A DNA stretch of 24,000 nt from an uncultured Cardiobacterium sp. (GCA_963553325.1 CAUVOF010000007.1:19401-43400); one strand, 5' to 3'; shown: positions 1 through 8,259, counted from the stretch's first letter. Made by a program: numbers and translations. The notes: a model not told the origin generated them from the sequence alone.

Positions 1-18
1 CCGGGCATGAATGCCCGG
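1..18 (-). terminator. Possible terminator stem 3' of the AAA+ gene. It is a perfect 8-bp inverted repeat, ccgggcat-ga-atgcccgg, cut by the window edge.
   Basis: Inverted repeat read directly at 1-8 and 11-18, about 10 nt downstream (minus sense) of the stop codon at 29-31. Any U-tract would lie outside the window. Confidence 0.3.
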
Positions 19-28
19 CCTCGGATAG

Positions 29-2290
29 TTAATCAAAATCCGCCAGTTCCAACTGCAGGCCGTCGATGTCGCCTGCATCGAGGTGGCGGACGATGGCGGC
101 CTGTTCGGCGCGATCGACCCAGTTGCGCAGGTCGCGGCCGCTTTGACCATCGCTGCGTGCGGCAAGCCCAGCGCAGCCCGTATCCAAATCGAAGGCGACG
201 GGTTTGTTGGCGAGCAGGACGCGCAGGATGGCAGCGCGTGCCGCTTCGTCCGGCAGACCGATTTCGATGCGGCGGTTGAAGCGGGAAAGGACGGCGTTAT
301 CCATGTCTTCCGGGCGGTTGGTCGCTGCCAGCACGAAGACGTCGCCGCTGTGGCTTTTGATGCCGTCCAGCTCTTGCAGCAGTTGGCCGATGATTTCTTT
401 GTTGAAGGTGTCGTCCGCGCCGCCGCGTGCCGGGGCGATGATGTCCATTTCGTCGATAAAGAGGATGCACGGTGACTGGCTGCGCGCCCGCGCAAACAAT
501 TCTTTCACCAATTGCCCGCTTTGTCCGATGTAGCCCGCTTTTAGGTCGGCGGTAGCGGCGCCGATGAATGACAGACCGCTTTCGTTTGCCATGGTGCGCG
601 CGATTTGTGTTTTGCCGGTGCCAGGCGGGCCATAGAGAAGGATACCGCGCGGGATACTGATGCCTTTGGCACGCAGCGCATCGGCATTGGCAAATACCGC
701 ACAGGCGGAATGCAGCATTTTTTTGTTGGCTTCATTCAGAATCAATTTGTCCCAGGTGGCGTCTTTATCGACGGCGCTATTGCTGCCGGTGCGTTTATCA
801 CGGGTGGCGCTCGCGAGGGTATCTTCGTTAATGTCGCCACCATTGCGCATCATTTGCCGCGCAAGGTTGGCAATTTCCCGTCCAGAGAATCCTTGCAAAT
901 AGTCGCTGGCATTTTCTGGCAATTCGCCCTGCCATTCGAGGGTGGCGAGTTCGGCGGCAAAGATTGCTTGGCGCATTTCTGCATCGGGCAGCGGAATTTC
1001 TATTTGTTCGGCAAAACGTGAGAGAACGGCTTCGTCCATAATGTCGCGGCGGTTGGTCGCACCCATGACCAATACGGTTTTTTGTTTGTTAAAGCCATCC
1101 CATTCAGCGATAAAAGCCTGCACGATGTCATCGGTAAAGCTATCGCTGCCGGTGCTGCCGCGTTTGATAAATATGCTTTCGCATTCGTCAATAAAAAGGA
1201 TGCAGCGTTTATATCCTTTGGCTTTTTCCCATACTTCTTTGACTTTCTGCCCGCTTTCACCAATGTAACGCCCTTTCAGGTCGTGCAGGTTTACCGCAAT
1301 AAAGCCGCAATCCAGGGTATCGGCGAGGGTGCGGGCGATGAGTGATTTGCCCGTCCCCGGTGCGCCGTAGAGAAGGATGCCTTGTGCGGCGCTGTTTTCA
1401 CCGGCGGCAAAGGCATCGCCCAGTTGGCGGATATTTTGTTTGAGGTTTTCCGGCAGATAGACGCCCGCCCAGCGTGCGACAATTTCTGCTTCTTTGGCTT
1501 CTCGCTCAGCTTGCAGCTTGGCAGCAAGCGCTTGTTGTGCGGCGCTGTTTGCCGTGGCTTGTGGCAATTCGCGGTGGATGTTGAAGGCGTCTTCGGTGCG
1601 CCGCCGTTCTTCATAGGTGTCTTTTTCCCGCCAGTATTCACGCCACAAATCTATTTTTTCGACAAATTGCAGGGCAAGCGCTTTTATTTGCGGATTTGCC
1701 GGGGCAGCTTCGCCTTTATATACAAATTTTGCGCCATTCCAGAAAATTAGCGGCATTTGTCCTTGTTTGCGCATGGGGATATAGCATAAGATTTCCCCTA
1801 TCCTTTTATTATTGCTGCCATCTTTTTGATTGATACCAATCATAATATCGCCGTATTGAACGCCTTCAACATTAGCACTGTTATACGAATTAAAAAAGAG
1901 TTCTCCATTCTTAAAACGACTATACGAACTAACCATAAAAAGCGCAAAGCGCTCATCATTACTTTTCCCTTCAACAAGTGCAAATTCAAGAAAATGGTTT
2001 TCGAGAAATTTATCCCGCTTTGCCATTTCACTAACGAATTTGAATATTGCATAGATTATCGCAATGACGCCAAGAAGAAAAAATTGGGTAACGATAGAGA
2101 GAAAGATAGCGAGAAAAATGAAGGTAATCCAAAAGGCGGTTTTGACGGGCGGCACTTCGATGCCCAATTTTTTTAGGGTATCGGCATTTAGGTATTGATT
2201 GCCGAGTGCGTCGTTAGCGGTCTTGGAAAATTGGTTCAATGCTTGCCGCATTTGTTCGATGCGGTATTTCTGGTTTTGTAAGTCGCTCAT
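29..2290 (-). CDS. Membrane-anchored tandem AAA+ ATPase (classic AAA, SpoVK/Vps4/spastin-like, two ATPase domains)
   Basis: 753-aa ORF with ATG at 2288-2290 and AGGAG (complement of 2296-2300) 5 nt upstream. Two Walker A motifs (GAPGTGKS, GPPGTGKT) and two Walker B motifs (ILFIDECE, ILFIDEMD). Two pore-loop-like motifs (GRYIGESGQ, AGYIGQSGQ). Two SRH-like segments (GATNRRDIMDEAVLSRF, AATNRPEDMDNAVLSRF). N-terminal hydrophobic stretch AFWITFIFLAIFLSIVTQFFLLGVIAIIYAIF. Confidence 0.88.
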   Translation of the reverse strand: MSDLQNQKYRIEQMRQALNQFSKTANDALGNQYLNADTLKKLGIEVPPVKTAFWITFIFLAIFLSIVTQFFLLGVIAIIYAIFKFVSEMAKRDKFLENHFLEFALVEGKSNDERFALFMVSSYSRFKNGELFFNSYNSANVEGVQYGDIMIGINQKDGSNNKRIGEILCYIPMRKQGQMPLIFWNGAKFVYKGEAAPANPQIKALALQFVEKIDLWREYWREKDTYEERRRTEDAFNIHRELPQATANSAAQQALAAKLQAEREAKEAEIVARWAGVYLPENLKQNIRQLGDAFAAGENSAAQGILLYGAPGTGKSLIARTLADTLDCGFIAVNLHDLKGRYIGESGQKVKEVWEKAKGYKRCILFIDECESIFIKRGSTGSDSFTDDIVQAFIAEWDGFNKQKTVLVMGATNRRDIMDEAVLSRFAEQIEIPLPDAEMRQAIFAAELATLEWQGELPENASDYLQGFSGREIANLARQMMRNGGDINEDTLASATRDKRTGSNSAVDKDATWDKLILNEANKKMLHSACAVFANADALRAKGISIPRGILLYGPPGTGKTQIARTMANESGLSFIGAATADLKAGYIGQSGQLVKELFARARSQSPCILFIDEMDIIAPARGGADDTFNKEIIGQLLQELDGIKSHSGDVFVLAATNRPEDMDNAVLSRFNRRIEIGLPDEAARAAILRVLLANKPVAFDLDTGCAGLAARSDGQSGRDLRNWVDRAEQAAIVRHLDAGDIDGLQLELADFD

Positions 2291-2308
2291 ACTTGCTCCT
2301 GTTAGTTT

Positions 2309-2959
2309 TTATTCCTGAATTTTGCCATGTTGTAGGCGGATGATGCGGTCGGTTTTGGCGCCGAGGTCGGGGTTGTGCGTCACCATGACGATGGTGCGGT
2401 TCTGCGCGTGCAGTTCGGCGAAGATGCGCAGCACGGTTTGTTCGTTTTCGGCGTCGAGGTTGCCGGTGGGCTCGTCGGCAAAGAGGATTTCCGGTTCGTT
2501 GATGAGCGCGCGGGCGATGCAGACGCGCTGTTGCTCGCCGCCGGATAGTTGCTTCGGCAGGTGGTCGCTGCGGTGTGCGAGGCCAACGCGATCCAGCGCG
2601 GCAAGCGCTGCCGTTTTGTCGGTAACGCTGTGGTAGTACTGCGCCAGCATGACGTTTTCGCAGGCGGTGAGGTAGGGCAAGAGGTGGAATTGTTGGAAGA
2701 CGAGTCCGATGGTGCGCGCGCGGAAGCTGCGGCGCGCTTCTTCGTCGAGCGCAGCGGCGTCGGTGCCGTTTAGCAGTACTTTGCCTTCTGTGGGGGTGTC
2801 GAGGCAGGAAAGGATGTTCATCAGCGTGGTTTTGCCGGAGCCGCTCGAGCCCATGATGGCGACGAATTCGCCGCGCGCGACGGCGATATTGACGTCGTCC
2901 AGCGCGGTAACGGTGCCGAAGCGTTTGTAGAGGTGGACGGTTTCGATGACGGGTTGCAT
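2309..2959 (-). CDS. ABC transporter ATP-binding protein, MacB/LolD/FtsE-like (type VII ABC partner of FtsX permeases)
   Basis: The true start is the internal ATG at 2957-2959 (MQPVIETVHLYKRFG...), preceded by GGAG. The 69-aa upstream extension in the ORF track is a Ser/Pro-rich artefact overlapping the previous gene. Walker A GSSGSGKT, Q-loop FQQF, signature LSGGEQQR, Walker B ILFADEPT, H-loop VTHN. Confidence 0.92.
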   Translation of the reverse strand: MQPVIETVHLYKRFGTVTALDDVNIAVARGEFVAIMGSSGSGKTTLMNILSCLDTPTEGKVLLNGTDAAALDEEARRSFRARTIGLVFQQFHLLPYLTACENVMLAQYYHSVTDKTAALAALDRVGLAHRSDHLPKQLSGGEQQRVCIARALINEPEILFADEPTGNLDAENEQTVLRIFAELHAQNRTIVMVTHNPDLGAKTDRIIRLQHGKIQE

Positions 2960-2963
2960 GGGT

Positions 2964-4079
2964 TCAGGCTCCTTTGAGGATGTCGGCGGCTTGCAGGGCA
3001 AGGACGCGCTTGAGCGGCAGGGCGACGGCGGCGGCAGCGACGGCGGTGGAGAGGATGATGGCGAGCGGGAAGACCGGCAGGCGCGGCGCGATGCTGGCGT
3101 GGAAGACGACGGCGCCGAGGATTTGCGCGAGGATGAGCCCCAGCGCGATGCCGATGGCGACGGCAACGGCAGCCATTAGCGCGGTTTCGCGAATCATCTG
3201 CGCGGTGATGGCTTTGCGGCTGGCGCCGAGTGCGCTTTGCAGGGCGAATTCGCGGCGGCGTTCGTGGGTCATCGCAGTGAGCGAGGTATTGACGCAGAGG
3301 CTAGAGAGCAGCAGGATGACGATGCAAACGACGCCCATCAGCCCTTTGATTTTGTGCAGGATTTGTCCTTCGGCGGCGCTGACTTTGCGGATGGGGTGGA
3401 TGTCGAGCTGCGGGTACTCGCGCGAGAGGGTGTCGGCGTAGGCGGTGACGGCGTCGTTGTCGTTGGCAAGGCTTGCCAGCGCGTAGCTGATGCCGCCAGC
3501 GCTGCCGAGCCAGTCTTGCGCGACGCGGATGTTGAGCAGCATGACGTTGTCCATCGCGTCGCCGCTTTCGACGATTCCTTTGATGCGGAAGGTTTTTTTC
3601 TGGCCGTTATCTTTGACGAGGGTGATGTTGTCGCCGACGTTCAGCTCAAGCTGCGCGGCGAGTGCCTTGCCGAGCATGGTGTTGCGGTCGTCAAAGGCGA
3701 CGCTGACCCAGCCGCCCTGCACCTGCCAGTAAGGCACGAGCGCCGGCAGCGCCGGGAAATCAACGCCGACCAGCGCGACGGGCTCGCGTTCGCTGCGCGC
3801 CACCGCGTAGAGATAGGGGCTGGATGCGTGGTACAAATCCTTCGGCATGGCGGCGATGATGGCTTCGTATTGTTCGAGGGTAAAGGGCGTTTCGTTTTTC
3901 GCGCCGAGGTAGAAGTTGGCACCGAAGGAACGCAGCTCGCGGCTCATTTTTTCGTTGATGTCGAAATAGACCGACGCCATCGCCGTTACCATCGCCGCGC
4001 CGATGGAAAGGGCGGCGACGATGACCAGCGTGCGCCGCCATTTGAGGCGCAGCGCTTTGAAAAGCAGTAACCATTTCAT
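2964..4079 (-). CDS. ABC transporter permease, FtsX/MacB family
   Basis: MKWLLLFKALRLKWRRTLVIVAALSIGAAMV... shows one N-terminal TM helix, a roughly 200-aa extracytoplasmic domain and a C-terminal three-TM FtsX-type bundle. The ATG at 4077-4079 lies 4 nt after the upstream stop. An alternative ATG at 4094 would overlap the upstream gene by 11 nt. Confidence 0.85.
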   Translation of the reverse strand: MKWLLLFKALRLKWRRTLVIVAALSIGAAMVTAMASVYFDINEKMSRELRSFGANFYLGAKNETPFTLEQYEAIIAAMPKDLYHASSPYLYAVARSEREPVALVGVDFPALPALVPYWQVQGGWVSVAFDDRNTMLGKALAAQLELNVGDNITLVKDNGQKKTFRIKGIVESGDAMDNVMLLNIRVAQDWLGSAGGISYALASLANDNDAVTAYADTLSREYPQLDIHPIRKVSAAEGQILHKIKGLMGVVCIVILLLSSLCVNTSLTAMTHERRREFALQSALGASRKAITAQMIRETALMAAVAVAIGIALGLILAQILGAVVFHASIAPRLPVFPLAIILSTAVAAAAVALPLKRVLALQAADILKGA

Positions 4080-4083
4080 ACTG

Positions 4084-5364
4084 TTAGCGTTCATAAAGCA
4101 CCTCAATCGGGATTTGGCGGGCGATGCTGCGCACCGGGAACCAGGTGCCAATCAGCGCAATGAGAACTGCGGCGAAGACCACCACCGGCACCACTATCCA
4201 GGTAAAGCCGAGCGCCGCGCCAAAAAGCGCTTCGCCAATCGCCCAGCCGAGCAGCGCGCCACCGGCGCAGCCGAGCAAGCCGCCGAGCGCGCCAACCAGC
4301 ACCGATTCGGCGTAAAAGAGCAGCGCGATTTGCCACGGTTTGGCGCCCAGCGCACGCATCAGCCCGATTTCCTTGGCGCGCGCCATGATGCCGCTGCCAG
4401 TGAGCGAGGCGATGCCCATGCCGGCGGAAATCAGCGCGGCGACGCTGCACACTATCAACAGCAACTGGATTTTTTCGATGACGACGCCTTCGGAAGCGGC
4501 GACCTGCCACACCGGACGCACCACCGAGCCGGAAACGGTTTCCTCCAACTGGTGCGCGATGGTGGAAACGTAGGCGGTGCAATACCACTGGTCGTACTGC
4601 TTGGCGTCCAGCGCCGACGGGTTCTCGTGTGCCTTGCGCGACAAGTCATTTTCCGGCACGGTCATCGCCGCGACTTGTATCGCGCTGATTTTGCCTGAAA
4701 GCCCCAGCAGTTGTTGCAACGCGGCAAGCGGCAAGACGAGCTGGTTATCCTGCGCTGCGCCGCTGGTGAGAATGCCGACGATGCGCGCGCGCCGCACGGG
4801 GCTGCCCGGCGCGGTGGACGAGAGCGACAACACGTCGCCCGCCTGCCAGCCGTGTTCCGTTGCCAGCTTAATGCCCGCGAGCAGCGGCAACTCCTGCGGC
4901 AACGCGCCGCTGTCGTCCGGCCAGTCGCCTGCGACCTGCCAAAACGGACTGACCGCCTTCTGTCCGGTGTGGAAATTCGATTCATCGGCAACATCCAGCG
5001 GGTGATCGAAAAACGTGCCGAGCGCGGCGACTTCCACCCCATCGGCGCGCAGCCGCCCGGAAAGCAGCGGCGCGAAGCCGTAGATGTTGTTGCGCCAAAA
5101 AATATCCATCACCGACGGCAGCACCTTCTCGTCCAAAAAATACTGCTGCCCAGCGACATCGTCCGGCAAAAGCGCGCCGCCTGCCGGCTCAATCAAAATA
5201 TTGGCGCCATAAGACTTCAACTCGCGCGACATCTTGTCGCCAATATCGACCGAAACCGCGAGCAAGCCCGCAATCAGAGCGGACGCCAAAAAAATCGTCA
5301 AAAACGCCAGCGCCTTGCGCGGCAAATCATGATGCCAAAGCTGAAAAATCATCCGCCAAAACAT
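4084..5364 (-). CDS. ABC transporter permease, FtsX/MacB family (second paralogous subunit)
   Basis: 426-aa ORF with the same topology (MFWRMIFQLWHHDLPRKALAFLTIFLASALIAG..., large loop, C-terminal TM bundle). ATG at 5362-5364 is preceded by AAGGAG and lies 4 nt from the upstream stop at 5369-5371. Confidence 0.87.
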   Translation of the reverse strand: MFWRMIFQLWHHDLPRKALAFLTIFLASALIAGLLAVSVDIGDKMSRELKSYGANILIEPAGGALLPDDVAGQQYFLDEKVLPSVMDIFWRNNIYGFAPLLSGRLRADGVEVAALGTFFDHPLDVADESNFHTGQKAVSPFWQVAGDWPDDSGALPQELPLLAGIKLATEHGWQAGDVLSLSSTAPGSPVRRARIVGILTSGAAQDNQLVLPLAALQQLLGLSGKISAIQVAAMTVPENDLSRKAHENPSALDAKQYDQWYCTAYVSTIAHQLEETVSGSVVRPVWQVAASEGVVIEKIQLLLIVCSVAALISAGMGIASLTGSGIMARAKEIGLMRALGAKPWQIALLFYAESVLVGALGGLLGCAGGALLGWAIGEALFGAALGFTWIVVPVVVFAAVLIALIGTWFPVRSIARQIPIEVLYER

Positions 5365-5368
5365 CGCC

Positions 5369-6760
5369 TTACTCCTTCACAAAATCTTCGGGTTTATCGA
5401 CAAAGCGCTGATAATTTTCCTCGGTGCGGAAAAAGTACGTCTTCGTGCCGTAGCTGTAGCGGTGCGGCGCGGTGGTGTTTTTCACCTTGCTGCCATCGAC
5501 CGGGTCAATCACCTCCAGCTCAACCACTGCCTTGAAGAAATTCAGCCCCGCTTCCAGCGCCTTGCGCGGCACGAGAATCTCGCCGCCCGCCTGCGACCAG
5601 CCCTCAATCGGCACCGGATTACAGCCGCCACTCTTGCCGACATTGGGGCGGAACAAACGCACGCCGCAGGCAACGCAGACCACCTGGTCGCCCTGCATCG
5701 CGTACCCCGTATCGCCGCAGAGCAGGCAGGCATCGAACACCACCGCCGGCGACCACTCGCCGGGGAAGCGGTCAATCACGAAAAAGCGCACCACCTTGCC
5801 CTCGGCAGAAACCCAGGCGAAGCGGTGCAAATCGCCGTCCTTGAGCTTCAAATCCGCAATCGGCAAATGCACCACATCATCCGCGGCGAGCATAACCGGC
5901 GTCGCCGCCGACAAGGCGGGCGGTTGCGAGGCGACCAAGTCCCAAAAGAGCGCCGTTGCCAAAGCAAAACAGACCGCAAACGCGCCCTGCCACACCGCGC
6001 GCCGACCGCGTCGCGCCTCAGCAATGAGCAAACGGCGTTCCACCGCGGTCGCTTTCGTAGTGGCGAGCCGCTTGCGCCGTGGCAACCAGCCAGAACAAAG
6101 CGCTGCCAACGTCGCCAGCGCCAACAGCACAATCGCCACATAACCAAACCAGGCGCGGACGAACTCCGCCCGCGCCAACCAACGTAGGCGCGTGCTAGAA
6201 ATCTCCAGCCATTGCAGCTTCACCGCGGCAAGACCAACATCGGCGCCGAGCCACACCGCCCACACCGCGAGCAGCGTCAGCACAAATAGCGCTACCAGCG
6301 ATTGCCACACCCAGCGCGACACGAGCGAACGCAGCACCACCAGCCACAGCACGAGCAGCGCCGACAAGCCAGCGGCCGTCAGCACTGCGGCGAAATGCAA
6401 AATAAAAGAGGTGTTCACCACCGAAGTCGTCGAAAACGCGCTCATCACGGGTGCGGCAAAAAACGGCGCGGCGCCGAGCAGCCCGGCGACAAACCACAGC
6501 ACGTTCAAGGCAAAGGCGCGCCGCGTCAATAAAAGCAACAGCGCCAGCACAAGCAGCGCGCCGCGCGCGACGGCAAACCAAAACAGCGCCACCGACGATT
6601 CCGGCAACGCGGCAACCGCTACCGCACCAGCGAGCAAACCGCCGCTAAACGCGACAAACCAGCGCCCCGGCTTAAGCGGCGCATGCCCGGCAGACAAAAC
6701 CGCTGCCGCAAACAGCGGCAGCCAAAAACAACGCACGAAAAGAGAAAAAAACAGACTCAT
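5369..6760 (-). CDS. Polytopic membrane protein with a C-terminal FtrD-like/DUF2318 Cys-cluster domain and a Cys-less YHS-like tail
   Basis: The N-terminal roughly 270 aa are multiple hydrophobic helices. The soluble domain carries CLLCGDTGY...VVCVACGVRL...GGCNPVP. Start is taken at the ATG at 6758-6760 (MSLFFSLFVRCFWLPLF...). The ORF-track start at 6841 is a TTG adding 27 non-membrane residues and is less likely. Confidence 0.8.
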   Translation of the reverse strand: MSLFFSLFVRCFWLPLFAAAVLSAGHAPLKPGRWFVAFSGGLLAGAVAVAALPESSVALFWFAVARGALLVLALLLLLTRRAFALNVLWFVAGLLGAAPFFAAPVMSAFSTTSVVNTSFILHFAAVLTAAGLSALLVLWLVVLRSLVSRWVWQSLVALFVLTLLAVWAVWLGADVGLAAVKLQWLEISSTRLRWLARAEFVRAWFGYVAIVLLALATLAALCSGWLPRRKRLATTKATAVERRLLIAEARRGRRAVWQGAFAVCFALATALFWDLVASQPPALSAATPVMLAADDVVHLPIADLKLKDGDLHRFAWVSAEGKVVRFFVIDRFPGEWSPAVVFDACLLCGDTGYAMQGDQVVCVACGVRLFRPNVGKSGGCNPVPIEGWSQAGGEILVPRKALEAGLNFFKAVVELEVIDPVDGSKVKNTTAPHRYSYGTKTYFFRTEENYQRFVDKPEDFVKE

Positions 6761-6870
6761 AACGCCATCCGTATCAAGAAACGATCGCAATTCTACCGCG
6801 CGGCGCGGGGCAAGGCGAGGCGACGCGGCGCTATAATCCAATCTGAAATCCCTACCTCACCCAACCCCCC

Positions 6871-8259
6871 ATGATTCACCTCATCCTCGTCTCACATCAC
6901 CCCGACATCGCGCGCGGCATCGCCGCCCTTGCCGCACAAATGAGCGCCGCGCCCGATACCATCCACACCGCCGCCGGCATTGACGACGCGGACAACCCCG
7001 TCGGCACCGACGCCGTGCGCATCATGCAAGCCATTCTCGAAGCCGATAACCCAGACGGCATCCTCATCCTGGTTGATCTTGGCAGCGCCATCTTAAGCGC
7101 ACAAACCGCGCTCGATTTGCTCGACGACCCGGCGCTTGCCGCGCGTTGCCACATCAGCCCGGCGCCGCTGGTGGAAGGGGCAATCAGCGCCGCCGTTGCC
7201 GCCAGCAGCGGTGCCGACCTCGCCAGCGTCGCGCGCGAAGCGGAACAAGCGCTTGCCGCCAAGCAGGCGGCGTTGGGCGGTGATGCGCCCTGCCCTGCCC
7301 TAGCCGCCGCCGCGCCGCAAGGCGACAGCGCCAGCATCACCCTCGCCAACCGCGATGGTCTGCACGCCCGCCCTGCCGCACGCCTCGCCGCTGCCCTCGC
7401 CTCGTACCGCGCCCGCCTTGTCCTCACTTGCGGCGATAAACAAGCGGACGCCACCAGCCTTAACCAGCTCGCCCTGCTGCAAGCGCGCTGCGGCGACCGC
7501 CTCACCCTGTACGCTGATGGCGACGACGCGGCAAGCGCCCTGCAAGCCTTCCGCGACCTTGCCGCTGCCAATTTCGGCGACCCGGCAGACGAGCGCGACG
7601 GCAAGCGCATCGCCCGCGCCAATCCGGCAACAGCCGCCCGCATCCGTGCCGCCGTTTGGCGTTGCGAGCCGCCGCAACACGATGGCAACGCCCTGCACGC
7701 CGAGCGCGACCGCTTTCGCGCAGCGGTCGCCAGCGTTGCCGCCCGCTTGGCAAGCCTGCAAGCCGCAGTCAGCGCCCGCCTCAGCGCAGAAGCGGGCGAG
7801 ATTTTCGCCGCGCAGCAGTTACTGTTTGCCGAGCTGGTTGAAGCGACCCTCGCCAGCAGCGCGGCAAACCTCGCCCCGGTTTGGCAGGCGGAAACCAGCC
7901 GTGCCGCCGCCGAACTCGCCGCCTTGAGCGACCCCTATCTGCGCGCCCGTGCCGCCGACATCCACGACCTCGCGCAGCAGGTGCTGGCATTGCTTGCCGA
8001 GGCGCCTGAAGCCGTCGCCCCTGCTGACGCGCCTTTTGTCCTCATCGCCCGCGACCTCTACCCGTCGCGCGCCGCTACCCTGCCGGCGAACTGCCTCGCC
8101 GTCGTCCTTGCCGCCGGCGACGCGCGCAGCCACGCCGCCCTGCTCTGCCAAGCGGCGCAACGTCCCTGGTTCGGCGGCGCAGGCGATGCCGTCCTCGCCT
8201 TGCAAGATGGGCAATTCATCGAGATTGAGCGCGACAGCGGCGAGATTTTTCGCGTTTGA
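6871..8259 (+). CDS. dhaM: PTS-dependent dihydroxyacetone kinase phosphotransferase subunit DhaM (EIIA-Man-like + HPr-like + EI N-terminal-like domains)
   Basis: MIHLILVSHHPDIARGIAALAAQM matches the E. coli DhaM N-terminus (MVNLVIVSHS...). The HPr-like block is ITLANRDGLHARPAARLA. The EI-like phospho-His block is GDARSHAALLCQA near the C-terminus. Length is 462 aa, against about 470 aa for E. coli DhaM. Confidence 0.85.
   Translation: MIHLILVSHHPDIARGIAALAAQMSAAPDTIHTAAGIDDADNPVGTDAVRIMQAILEADNPDGILILVDLGSAILSAQTALDLLDDPALAARCHISPAPLVEGAISAAVAASSGADLASVAREAEQALAAKQAALGGDAPCPALAAAAPQGDSASITLANRDGLHARPAARLAAALASYRARLVLTCGDKQADATSLNQLALLQARCGDRLTLYADGDDAASALQAFRDLAAANFGDPADERDGKRIARANPATAARIRAAVWRCEPPQHDGNALHAERDRFRAAVASVAARLASLQAAVSARLSAEAGEIFAAQQLLFAELVEATLASSAANLAPVWQAETSRAAAELAALSDPYLRARAADIHDLAQQVLALLAEAPEAVAPADAPFVLIARDLYPSRAATLPANCLAVVLAAGDARSHAALLCQAAQRPWFGGAGDAVLALQDGQFIEIERDSGEIFRV

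Follow-up and report, generated by a model that had tools for sequence, protein, structure and literature searches.

The 24,000-nucleotide stretch of DNA analyzed here, referred to as the window, comes from an uncultured Cardiobacterium species (GCA_963553325.1 CAUVOF010000007.1:19401-43400) and carries five genes on the minus strand at its left end, which a first-pass annotation had described from the sequence as a single cluster. Read along the minus strand, these are a fetA-like gene of 463 codons (5369..6760), a fetB-like permease gene of 426 codons (4084..5364), a fetC-like permease gene (2964..4094, 376 codons, in the form preferred here; 2964..4079, 371 codons, in an earlier call), a fetD-like ATP-binding cassette (ABC) ATPase gene of 216 codons (2309..2959) and a gene for a AAA+ protein of 753 residues (29..2290), all defined as open reading frames (ORFs) with Pfam assignments. 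Profile searches with Pfam recovered FtrD-like, two FtsX, ABC_tran and two AAA domains, in agreement with the families first proposed for the five products. The first-pass annotation had gone on to suggest that a type VII ABC machine and the FetA-like protein work together with the AAA+ protein as a new variant of a known system. The comparisons presented below point elsewhere, and we judge it probable that the locus combines two units, each with a history of its own.

The reported spacing of the five same-strand ORFs was reproduced, with gaps of 4, 4, 4 and 18 nt when fetC is taken from 4079. The statement that the gene after each gap has a good Shine-Dalgarno (SD) sequence holds for fetB (GAAGGAG), fetD (AAGGAG) and the AAA+ gene (AGGAG), but not for the fetC ATG at 4079, which has none. 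The SD sequence of fetA is weak. An ATG at 4094 is preceded by GAGGTG, and the same start was used where fetC is called as 376 residues in the related contigs L005 and L008. For these two reasons we favor 4094 over 4079. With this start, the last 11 nt of fetB are probably shared with fetC.

Pfam and hydropathy analysis divide the FetA-like protein into an N-terminal polytopic membrane domain, a periplasmic DUF2318/FtrD-like domain (PF10080, E 2.7e-26) and a C-terminal YHS domain (PF04945, E 2.4e-11). Its cysteine motif, CxxC-x13-CxxC-x14-C (Cys-345, Cys-348, Cys-362, Cys-365 and Cys-380), is invariant in our FetA alignment and matches the published spacing (PMC6083913). It shares 89% identity with its counterpart in Cardiobacterium hominis NCTC10426, 84–100% with those of oral-metagenome Cardiobacterium and ~40% (36–44%) with FetA of Pasteurellaceae and Enterobacterales; for FetB and FetD the values against the latter two groups are 54–61% and 68–76%. 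The region around the cysteine cluster (residues ~310–380, window 5618-5833) also gave a weak BLASTP match to P19 (E 7e-4 for a single pair, 29% identity over 48 residues) that begins at GEWSP in FetA and GEWMP in P19; this may be chance, whereas a real relationship would point to a metal-binding element akin to P19 within FetA.

The two permeases share a layout, in hydropathy plots, of a first transmembrane (TM) segment near residues 16–43 and three C-terminal TM segments, with a large periplasmic domain following TM1 in FetB. FetC matches both MacB_PCD (E 1.7e-14, above the Pfam cut-off) and FtsX (E 3.8e-16); FetB matches FtsX (E 8e-19), and its MacB_PCD match is sub-threshold (21.1 bits versus a cut-off of 27). 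FetD is a clear ABC_tran protein (E 3e-36). In NCBIfam it is nearest to LolD (207 bits), FtsE (206 bits) and MacB, and FetB and FetC are nearest to LolC/E and MacB, with all permease and ATPase scores below the equivalog cut-offs.

In Campylobacter jejuni, genes of this type form part of a fetMP-fetABCDEF cluster, the architecture that the first-pass annotation had given (PMC6083913, PMC10783030). There fetA, fetB, fetC and fetD are each needed for FetMP-dependent growth under iron limitation (PMC6083913, PMC10783030), and in a survey of 33 species the first six genes of the cluster were always found together (PMC6083913). A FetA alignment was used to search a single genome from each species, which gave 80 FetA loci, and tblastn with seed proteins followed. 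All 72 loci from Pasteurellaceae and Enterobacterales have the order FTR1-P19-FetA-FtsX-FtsX, and nearly all of them go on to an ABC ATPase and a thioredoxin, usually with a cytochrome c as well; no ABC gene was detected in 6 (some of these contigs end first), and a few have no thioredoxin. The eight Cardiobacteriaceae loci of the scan, together with L008 and the window, make up ten distinct loci for this family (L010 represents the same genomic region as L021), and in none of the ten does FTR1 or P19 lie within 10 kb.

Within the 24-kb window itself no FTR1, P19 or thioredoxin gene was found, as had been stated before, either by tblastn with Pasteurellaceae and Pectobacterium seeds, of which the weak matches (E 0.01 at best) fall inside fetA, or by Pfam scans of ten of the other large ORFs. 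The only Cardiobacteriaceae locus with a thioredoxin after the ATPase is L023, the deepest-branching one, from a Cardiobacteriaceae metagenome-assembled genome (MAG). A protein search revealed FetE-like TlpA homologues in Cardiobacterium with 53–57% identity to the FetE of L023. One such homologue, a TlpA-family lipoprotein gene at L177:9381-10483 (55% identity), is divergent from a Csp (PF03860) gene, with msrAB and PPK2 genes near; fetMP is absent from this neighborhood, and no genome-wide search for P19 or FTR1 was made. The occurrence of fetABCD without Ftr1/P19 alongside is a trait of the whole family Cardiobacteriaceae, and a search of the literature returned nothing on the iron genes of Cardiobacterium.

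A module without its usual partners could be a decaying relic left after the loss of fetMP, in a region that is functionally inert as a whole. This would account for the absence of fetMP in cis from every Cardiobacteriaceae locus and of fetE in cis from the Cardiobacterium loci, for the disappearance of fetD from its place in C. valvarum and Cardiobacterium sp. Marseille-Q4385, and for the failure to find a consensus Fur site in the window. It conflicts, however, with the integrity of all four fet ORFs, with the conservation of the five cysteines, of the YHS domain and of a -10 element upstream of fetA, and with the ratios of nonsynonymous to synonymous divergence (dN/dS), which lie between 0.04 and 0.25 across fetABCD (0.06–0.15 for fetB) in comparisons with relatives at synonymous divergence (dS) of up to 1.5. 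The fetABCD genes are under purifying selection, and we regard functional decay as extremely improbable.

The AAA+ gene has a different record. When the window was compared by blastn with C. hominis (L017) and with L008, L018 and L024, homology ran from 6832 to 2308 at 90–91% nucleotide identity and ended at the fetD stop codon, with the right-hand block end placed at 2308-2313. When it was compared with AAA+ genes at other sites (L001 and L006), homology ran from 2303/2308 to 33. The two blocks meet in the 18-nt spacer AAACTAACAGGAGCAAGT (2291..2308, minus strand). Sequence to the left of this spacer is otherwise found only in AAA+ genes at other loci, and sequence to the right of it only in the fetABCD of other Cardiobacterium. 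One of the AAA+ contigs, L006, is itself C. hominis, as shown by 99% identity between its AAA+ protein and the one recorded for that species at NCBI; in C. hominis fetABCD (L017) has no AAA+ gene behind it, and the AAA+ gene lies at another site beside a gyrB fragment.

Three further contigs, L005, L097 and L098, have the fetABCD-AAA+ arrangement of the window, and in each of them a remnant of 45–58 bp from the 3' end of fetD, including the stop codon, lies after the terminator of the AAA+ gene (L005:5656-5730). With the end of fetD in L008 it shares 97% identity, more than does the copy still attached to fetD. The window stops just before the position at which its relatives carry the remnant.

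Divergence and composition differ between the fet genes and the AAA+ gene. Between the window and C. hominis, dS is 0.23–0.43 for fetABCD versus 1.0 for the AAA+ gene; between the window and L005 the order is reversed, with 0.06 for the AAA+ gene and 0.13–0.27 for fetBCD. Nucleotide identity to L097 is 91–96% in the fet genes and 99–100% in the AAA+ gene, with the step at about 2304. GC content at third codon positions (GC3) is 0.75–0.83 in fetABCD and 0.57 in the AAA+ gene; the AAA+ homologues of Xanthomonadales match their hosts in composition. Judged from these comparisons, the fetD/AAA+ junction is an insertion scar. We consider it likely that the AAA+ gene was acquired horizontally and is unrelated to the fet operon, and that the five-gene set is a recent accident of one lineage.

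Within the AAA+ gene, GC3 is uneven. The first ~215 codons (window 1646-2290), which encode an N-terminal helix, a TM hairpin and a beta domain, have a GC3 of 0.41 versus 0.63 for the rest, and the same holds in all Cardiobacterium copies. The nearest full-length relative outside the genus is found in a Weeksellaceae MAG, at 51% identity. There are hints here of a low-GC donor or of a chimeric origin of the gene.

The position behind fetD is variable among Cardiobacterium lineages. It holds the AAA+ gene in the window, L005, L097 and L098 and is empty in L017, L008 and L018. In L024 it holds a different cargo of 1.25 kb, encoding a secreted protein that has no Pfam match; a 64-bp fetD remnant comes next, and then a terminator (L024:4587-5899). 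In L010, L019 and L021 type I-C cas genes replace fetD (L010:13991-21506). In C. valvarum and strain Marseille-Q4385 such cas genes come after fetC, and fetD is missing. Because the fetD remnants of L005 and L024 have derived changes in common, the comparison suggests one old duplication of the fetD end and a subsequent exchange of cargo.

Two kinds of repeated sequence were noted around these sites. A palindrome resembling repetitive extragenic palindromic (REP) elements, ATACATACA-N14-TGTATGTA(T), is repeated across C. hominis-like contigs (L018:4433-4465, 6578-6610 and 7991-8022; L102:4145-4177, 4436-4467, 6807-6839 and 7929-7960) and is absent from the window. In L018 one copy begins ~13–17 nt past the fetD stop codon, and in L102 two copies bracket the AAA+ gene; the palindrome may be a recombination substrate for cassette moves. 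The other is a piece of 243 bp from the 3' end of gyrB, which lies just upstream of the AAA+ gene in the C. hominis-type contigs L006 and L104 (L006:9600-9842 versus L001:12761-13003, 89% identical) and is a second duplicated gene end at a boundary of the AAA+ cassette. In L001 the full gyrB gene is convergent with the AAA+ gene.

The first-pass annotation had itself proposed a survey for recurrent linkage of the AAA+ gene to DUF2318/FtsX clusters. A metagenome scan for relatives of the AAA+ protein gave 80 loci, of which only 2, both with AAA+ proteins 99–100% identical to that of the window, have FtsX or DUF2318 neighbors; neither family was found near any of the remaining 78. Linkage to a fet cluster is confined to copies 95–100% identical to the window protein (L005, L097 and L098), and the predicted recurrence is thus not borne out. 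The Cardiobacterium homologues at 74–77% identity and all 71 more distant metagenomic relatives are stand-alone genes, as is the AAA+ gene in L001-4, L006-7 and L014-16. Within Cardiobacterium the gene occurs in at least four different contexts, the 74–77% homologues occupying at least three beyond the fetD slot, and the homologues at ~40–45% identity in Pseudoxanthomonas and other Xanthomonadales-type genomes are monocistronic amid unrelated housekeeping genes, with two such contexts inspected individually. Seen from the fet side, none of the 80 FetA loci of the genome scan has a AAA+ gene behind the ATPase. C. hominis and three other close lineages have fetABCD with no AAA+ gene behind it, and the FetBCD proteins of close relatives that lack the linkage are 94–98% identical to those of the window.

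These surveys bear directly on the idea that the five genes constitute one system, in which the AAA+ protein would work with FetBCD and FetA, for example by extracting or remodeling FetA or a client, and so replace Ftr1, P19 and thioredoxin. The tight same-strand packing, the 18-nt gap with its AGGAG sequence and the position of the first terminator, only past the AAA+ gene, all speak for such a system, as do the retention of the arrangement in L005, L097 and L098 and the location of both partners at the inner membrane. Yet the linkage is limited to one sublineage and is missing from C. hominis and other close relatives, the AAA+ homologues stand alone everywhere else examined, related lineages fill the slot with different cargo, the junction bears a scar, and the AAA+ gene has a foreign composition and a decoupled dS. 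We therefore consider a five-gene functional unit of the kind first proposed very unlikely. A further scenario is also improbable in our estimation: Cardiobacteriaceae would lack fetMP genome-wide, FetABCD would act alone or with another partner, and the captured AAA+ protein would have been recruited in this lineage to service the module, for instance by extracting or resetting FetA. Were this so, the family would provide a natural system for separating the function of FetABCD from Ftr1/P19. Nothing indicates that the AAA+ protein needs or serves FetABCD.

The AAA+ protein contains two PF00004 domains (E 2e-72). The first, D1, has its Walker A motif at residue 309, Walker B at 364 and a YIG pore loop at 342, and the second, D2, has the equivalent elements at 554, 609 and 587. 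They are preceded by an N-terminal helix (residues 2–33), a TM hairpin (51–96), a beta domain (99–195) and long helices (200–274). An AlphaFold model of residues 1–282 (pLDDT 88) shows the helix, the TM hairpin, a beta domain of ~100 residues and two long helices. A Foldseek search of the PDB with this N-terminal model found no match at E<0.1, and a Pfam scan of the N-terminal 282 residues alone returned nothing significant. The closest solved structures by sequence are Cdc48, VAT and p97 (E 1e-79 to 1e-75). Run against 1.84 billion proteins, a profile of the N-terminal region recovered only 31 representatives at 50% identity. Roughly half of these are full-length (700–780 residues), and the shorter ones look like fragments. 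This distribution suggests that the N-terminal beta domain is specific to this AAA+ family. The protein is most likely a hexameric, membrane-tethered unfoldase that threads its substrates, for which a role in membrane-protein extraction or quality control is plausible. A literature search found nothing on a proteobacterial membrane-anchored tandem AAA+ protein.

The mobility of the AAA+ gene raises the alternative that the cassette is selfish or defense-type cargo that moves among variable genomic slots, for instance an ATPase for anti-phage defense or abortive infection, with a function that has nothing to do with envelope or metal physiology. The cassette occupies at least four sites in one genus, flanked by gene fragments (gyrB 3' end and PBP) and REP-like palindromes; it is low in GC, strains whose flanks have diverged carry almost identical copies of it, and CRISPR-Cas genes occupy the same slot in a sister species. 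The protein also matches IetA in PADLOC and IteA in NCBIfam. We rejected these matches as a sign of membership in a defense system: they reflect generic similarity among classic AAA proteins, at 235 bits versus the NF042959 cut-off of 510, and no gene for an IetS-type protease adjoins the AAA+ gene in any context looked at. Against the cargo hypothesis stand, further, the Xanthomonadales-type genomes, which hold the gene with host-like composition in ordinary and recurrent housekeeping contexts, and the absence from the Pfam assignments of the AAA+ protein of a nuclease, protease or other effector domain. We regard a selfish or defensive role as unlikely.

At the left edge of the window lies the intrinsic terminator hairpin of the cassette, CCGGGCAT..ATGCCCGG (1..20, minus strand), which is truncated there. 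It runs on into TTTTTT in the near-identical contigs L005, L097 and L098 and is for this reason taken as a real intrinsic terminator, and the earlier observation that a hairpin occurs only past the last gene stands. A scan of the fetD/AAA+ junction for promoters and terminators returned nothing usable. Many terminator-like matches inside fetA were discarded as a composition artifact of T-rich, membrane-coding sequence. Because the spacer is only 18 nt long and contains no terminator, and because the AAA+ gene has lost its native upstream region, cotranscription of fetD and the AAA+ gene is likely in this lineage. It looks like a by-product of the insertion, not a sign of partnership.

Upstream of fetA, a -10-like hexamer, TAGAAT (6790..6795, minus strand), is conserved 29 nt from the ATG. 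The surrounding sequence GCGGTAGAATTGCGA is kept in the window and L024 and has one or two changes in L019 and L022; L017 and L008 retain only GCGGTAGAAT. The hexamer is the likely promoter of the operon. Even when up to 3 mismatches were allowed, the 19-mer E. coli-type Fur consensus had no match in the window, and this may not be the motif used by Cardiobacterium; the missing consensus site does not exclude iron regulation.

The divergent gene on the other side of this region (6871-8259) is dhaM-like, as first annotated, with EIIA-man, HPr and PEP-utilizer domains. Its GC content is unusually high (0.70–0.73), it has no adjacent dhaK or dhaL, and GDPD, MFS and GlpD genes lie nearby. The block common with C. 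hominis stops at 6832, ~40 nt before the dhaM start codon at 6871, so the surroundings of the whole fetABCD block are different in the species of the window.

Taken together, these data are best explained by a two-part history. The first unit (6832..2309) would be an orphan fetABCD module inherited vertically in the Cardiobacteriaceae. FetB and FetC would form a heterodimer of MacB/LolCE-type FtsX permeases powered by the FetD ATPase, and, by homology with the C. jejuni system, FetABCD is most likely a type VII (mechanotransmission) ABC machine that assists high-affinity iron uptake by supporting the handling of redox chemistry or metals in the periplasm; a mechanotransmission rather than a transport function is suggested by family membership. 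The second unit (2308..1) would be a cassette of 2.3 kb that is foreign in composition, brings an SD sequence and a terminator of its own and carries a AAA+ gene belonging to a small family whose members otherwise stand alone. This cassette appears to have been inserted, in a single lineage of Cardiobacterium, directly behind the fetD stop codon, pushing the original last ~50 bp of fetD to its far side. Having lost its own upstream region, the AAA+ gene would now be transcribed by read-through from the fetA promoter. Its product is most likely a hexamer at the inner membrane face that draws substrate proteins through its two rings by way of their YIG pore loops.

Several observations weigh against this account. 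There is no integrase, transposase or recognizable att site to point to a mechanism of insertion. The arrangement is present in at least four related contigs with Fet proteins that differ by 2–8%, so that it has been maintained or has spread and does no obvious harm. With only 18 nt between the genes and a strong SD sequence, coexpression is forced, and this could be the sign or the source of a functional tie invisible to comparative genomics. The biochemical roles assigned to FetABCD and to the AAA+ protein, finally, are drawn from homology.

The biochemical role of the five-cysteine FetA and the MacB-like FetBCD is an open question in the field, and a family that keeps fetABCD under purifying selection with neither fetMP nor fetE in cis would be a natural test of the autonomy of the module. 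The AAA+ gene would serve as a cautionary example that perfect operon-like packing can stem from a recent cassette insertion and not from functional coupling. Of more specialist note are the slot behind fetD, with its lineage-specific cargo flanked by a duplicated gene end, and the small, uncharacterized family of membrane-tethered tandem AAA+ proteins, whose N-terminal beta domain has no match in Pfam or the PDB.

Compared with the Fet cluster of C. jejuni (cj1658-cj1665), which is named FetMP-FlcABCD in Yersinia pestis and FetMP-Fls in Salmonella, the window differs in having neither fetM and fetP upstream nor a thioredoxin or cytochrome c gene downstream, in having no detectable Fur box and in carrying an unrelated AAA+ gene after fetD. 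It resembles that cluster in encoding a multi-TM FetA with the DUF2318 cysteine motif and a YHS domain, and in the order of genes downstream of fetA, two FtsX permeases and then an ABC ATPase. The permeases and ATPase score far below the equivalog cut-offs for LolC/E, MacB, FtsX and LolD, and no adaptor or outer-membrane partner is encoded at the locus, in contrast to MacB, LolCDE and FtsEX. With these type VII ABC transporters they nevertheless share the FtsX C-terminal domain and a LolD/FtsE-like ATPase partner, and FetC, unlike FetB with its sub-threshold match, has a MacB-like periplasmic core between TM1 and TM2.

The AAA+ protein is set apart from the Cdc48 family by its score (279 bits versus the TIGR01243 cut-off of 802) and by an N-terminal TM hairpin and unrelated beta domain in place of the double-psi barrel. 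From FtsH it differs in having no protease domain (275 bits versus the model cut-off of 600), and from the anti-phage ATPase IetA/IteA in its sub-cut-off score and the lack of an adjacent IetS-type protease. Like Cdc48, p97, VAT and the actinobacterial Cpa, however, it combines two classic-clade AAA domains with Walker A and B motifs and aromatic-hydrophobic-Gly pore loops, and, as in Msp1/ATAD1 and FtsH, TM segments at its N terminus anchor it in the membrane.

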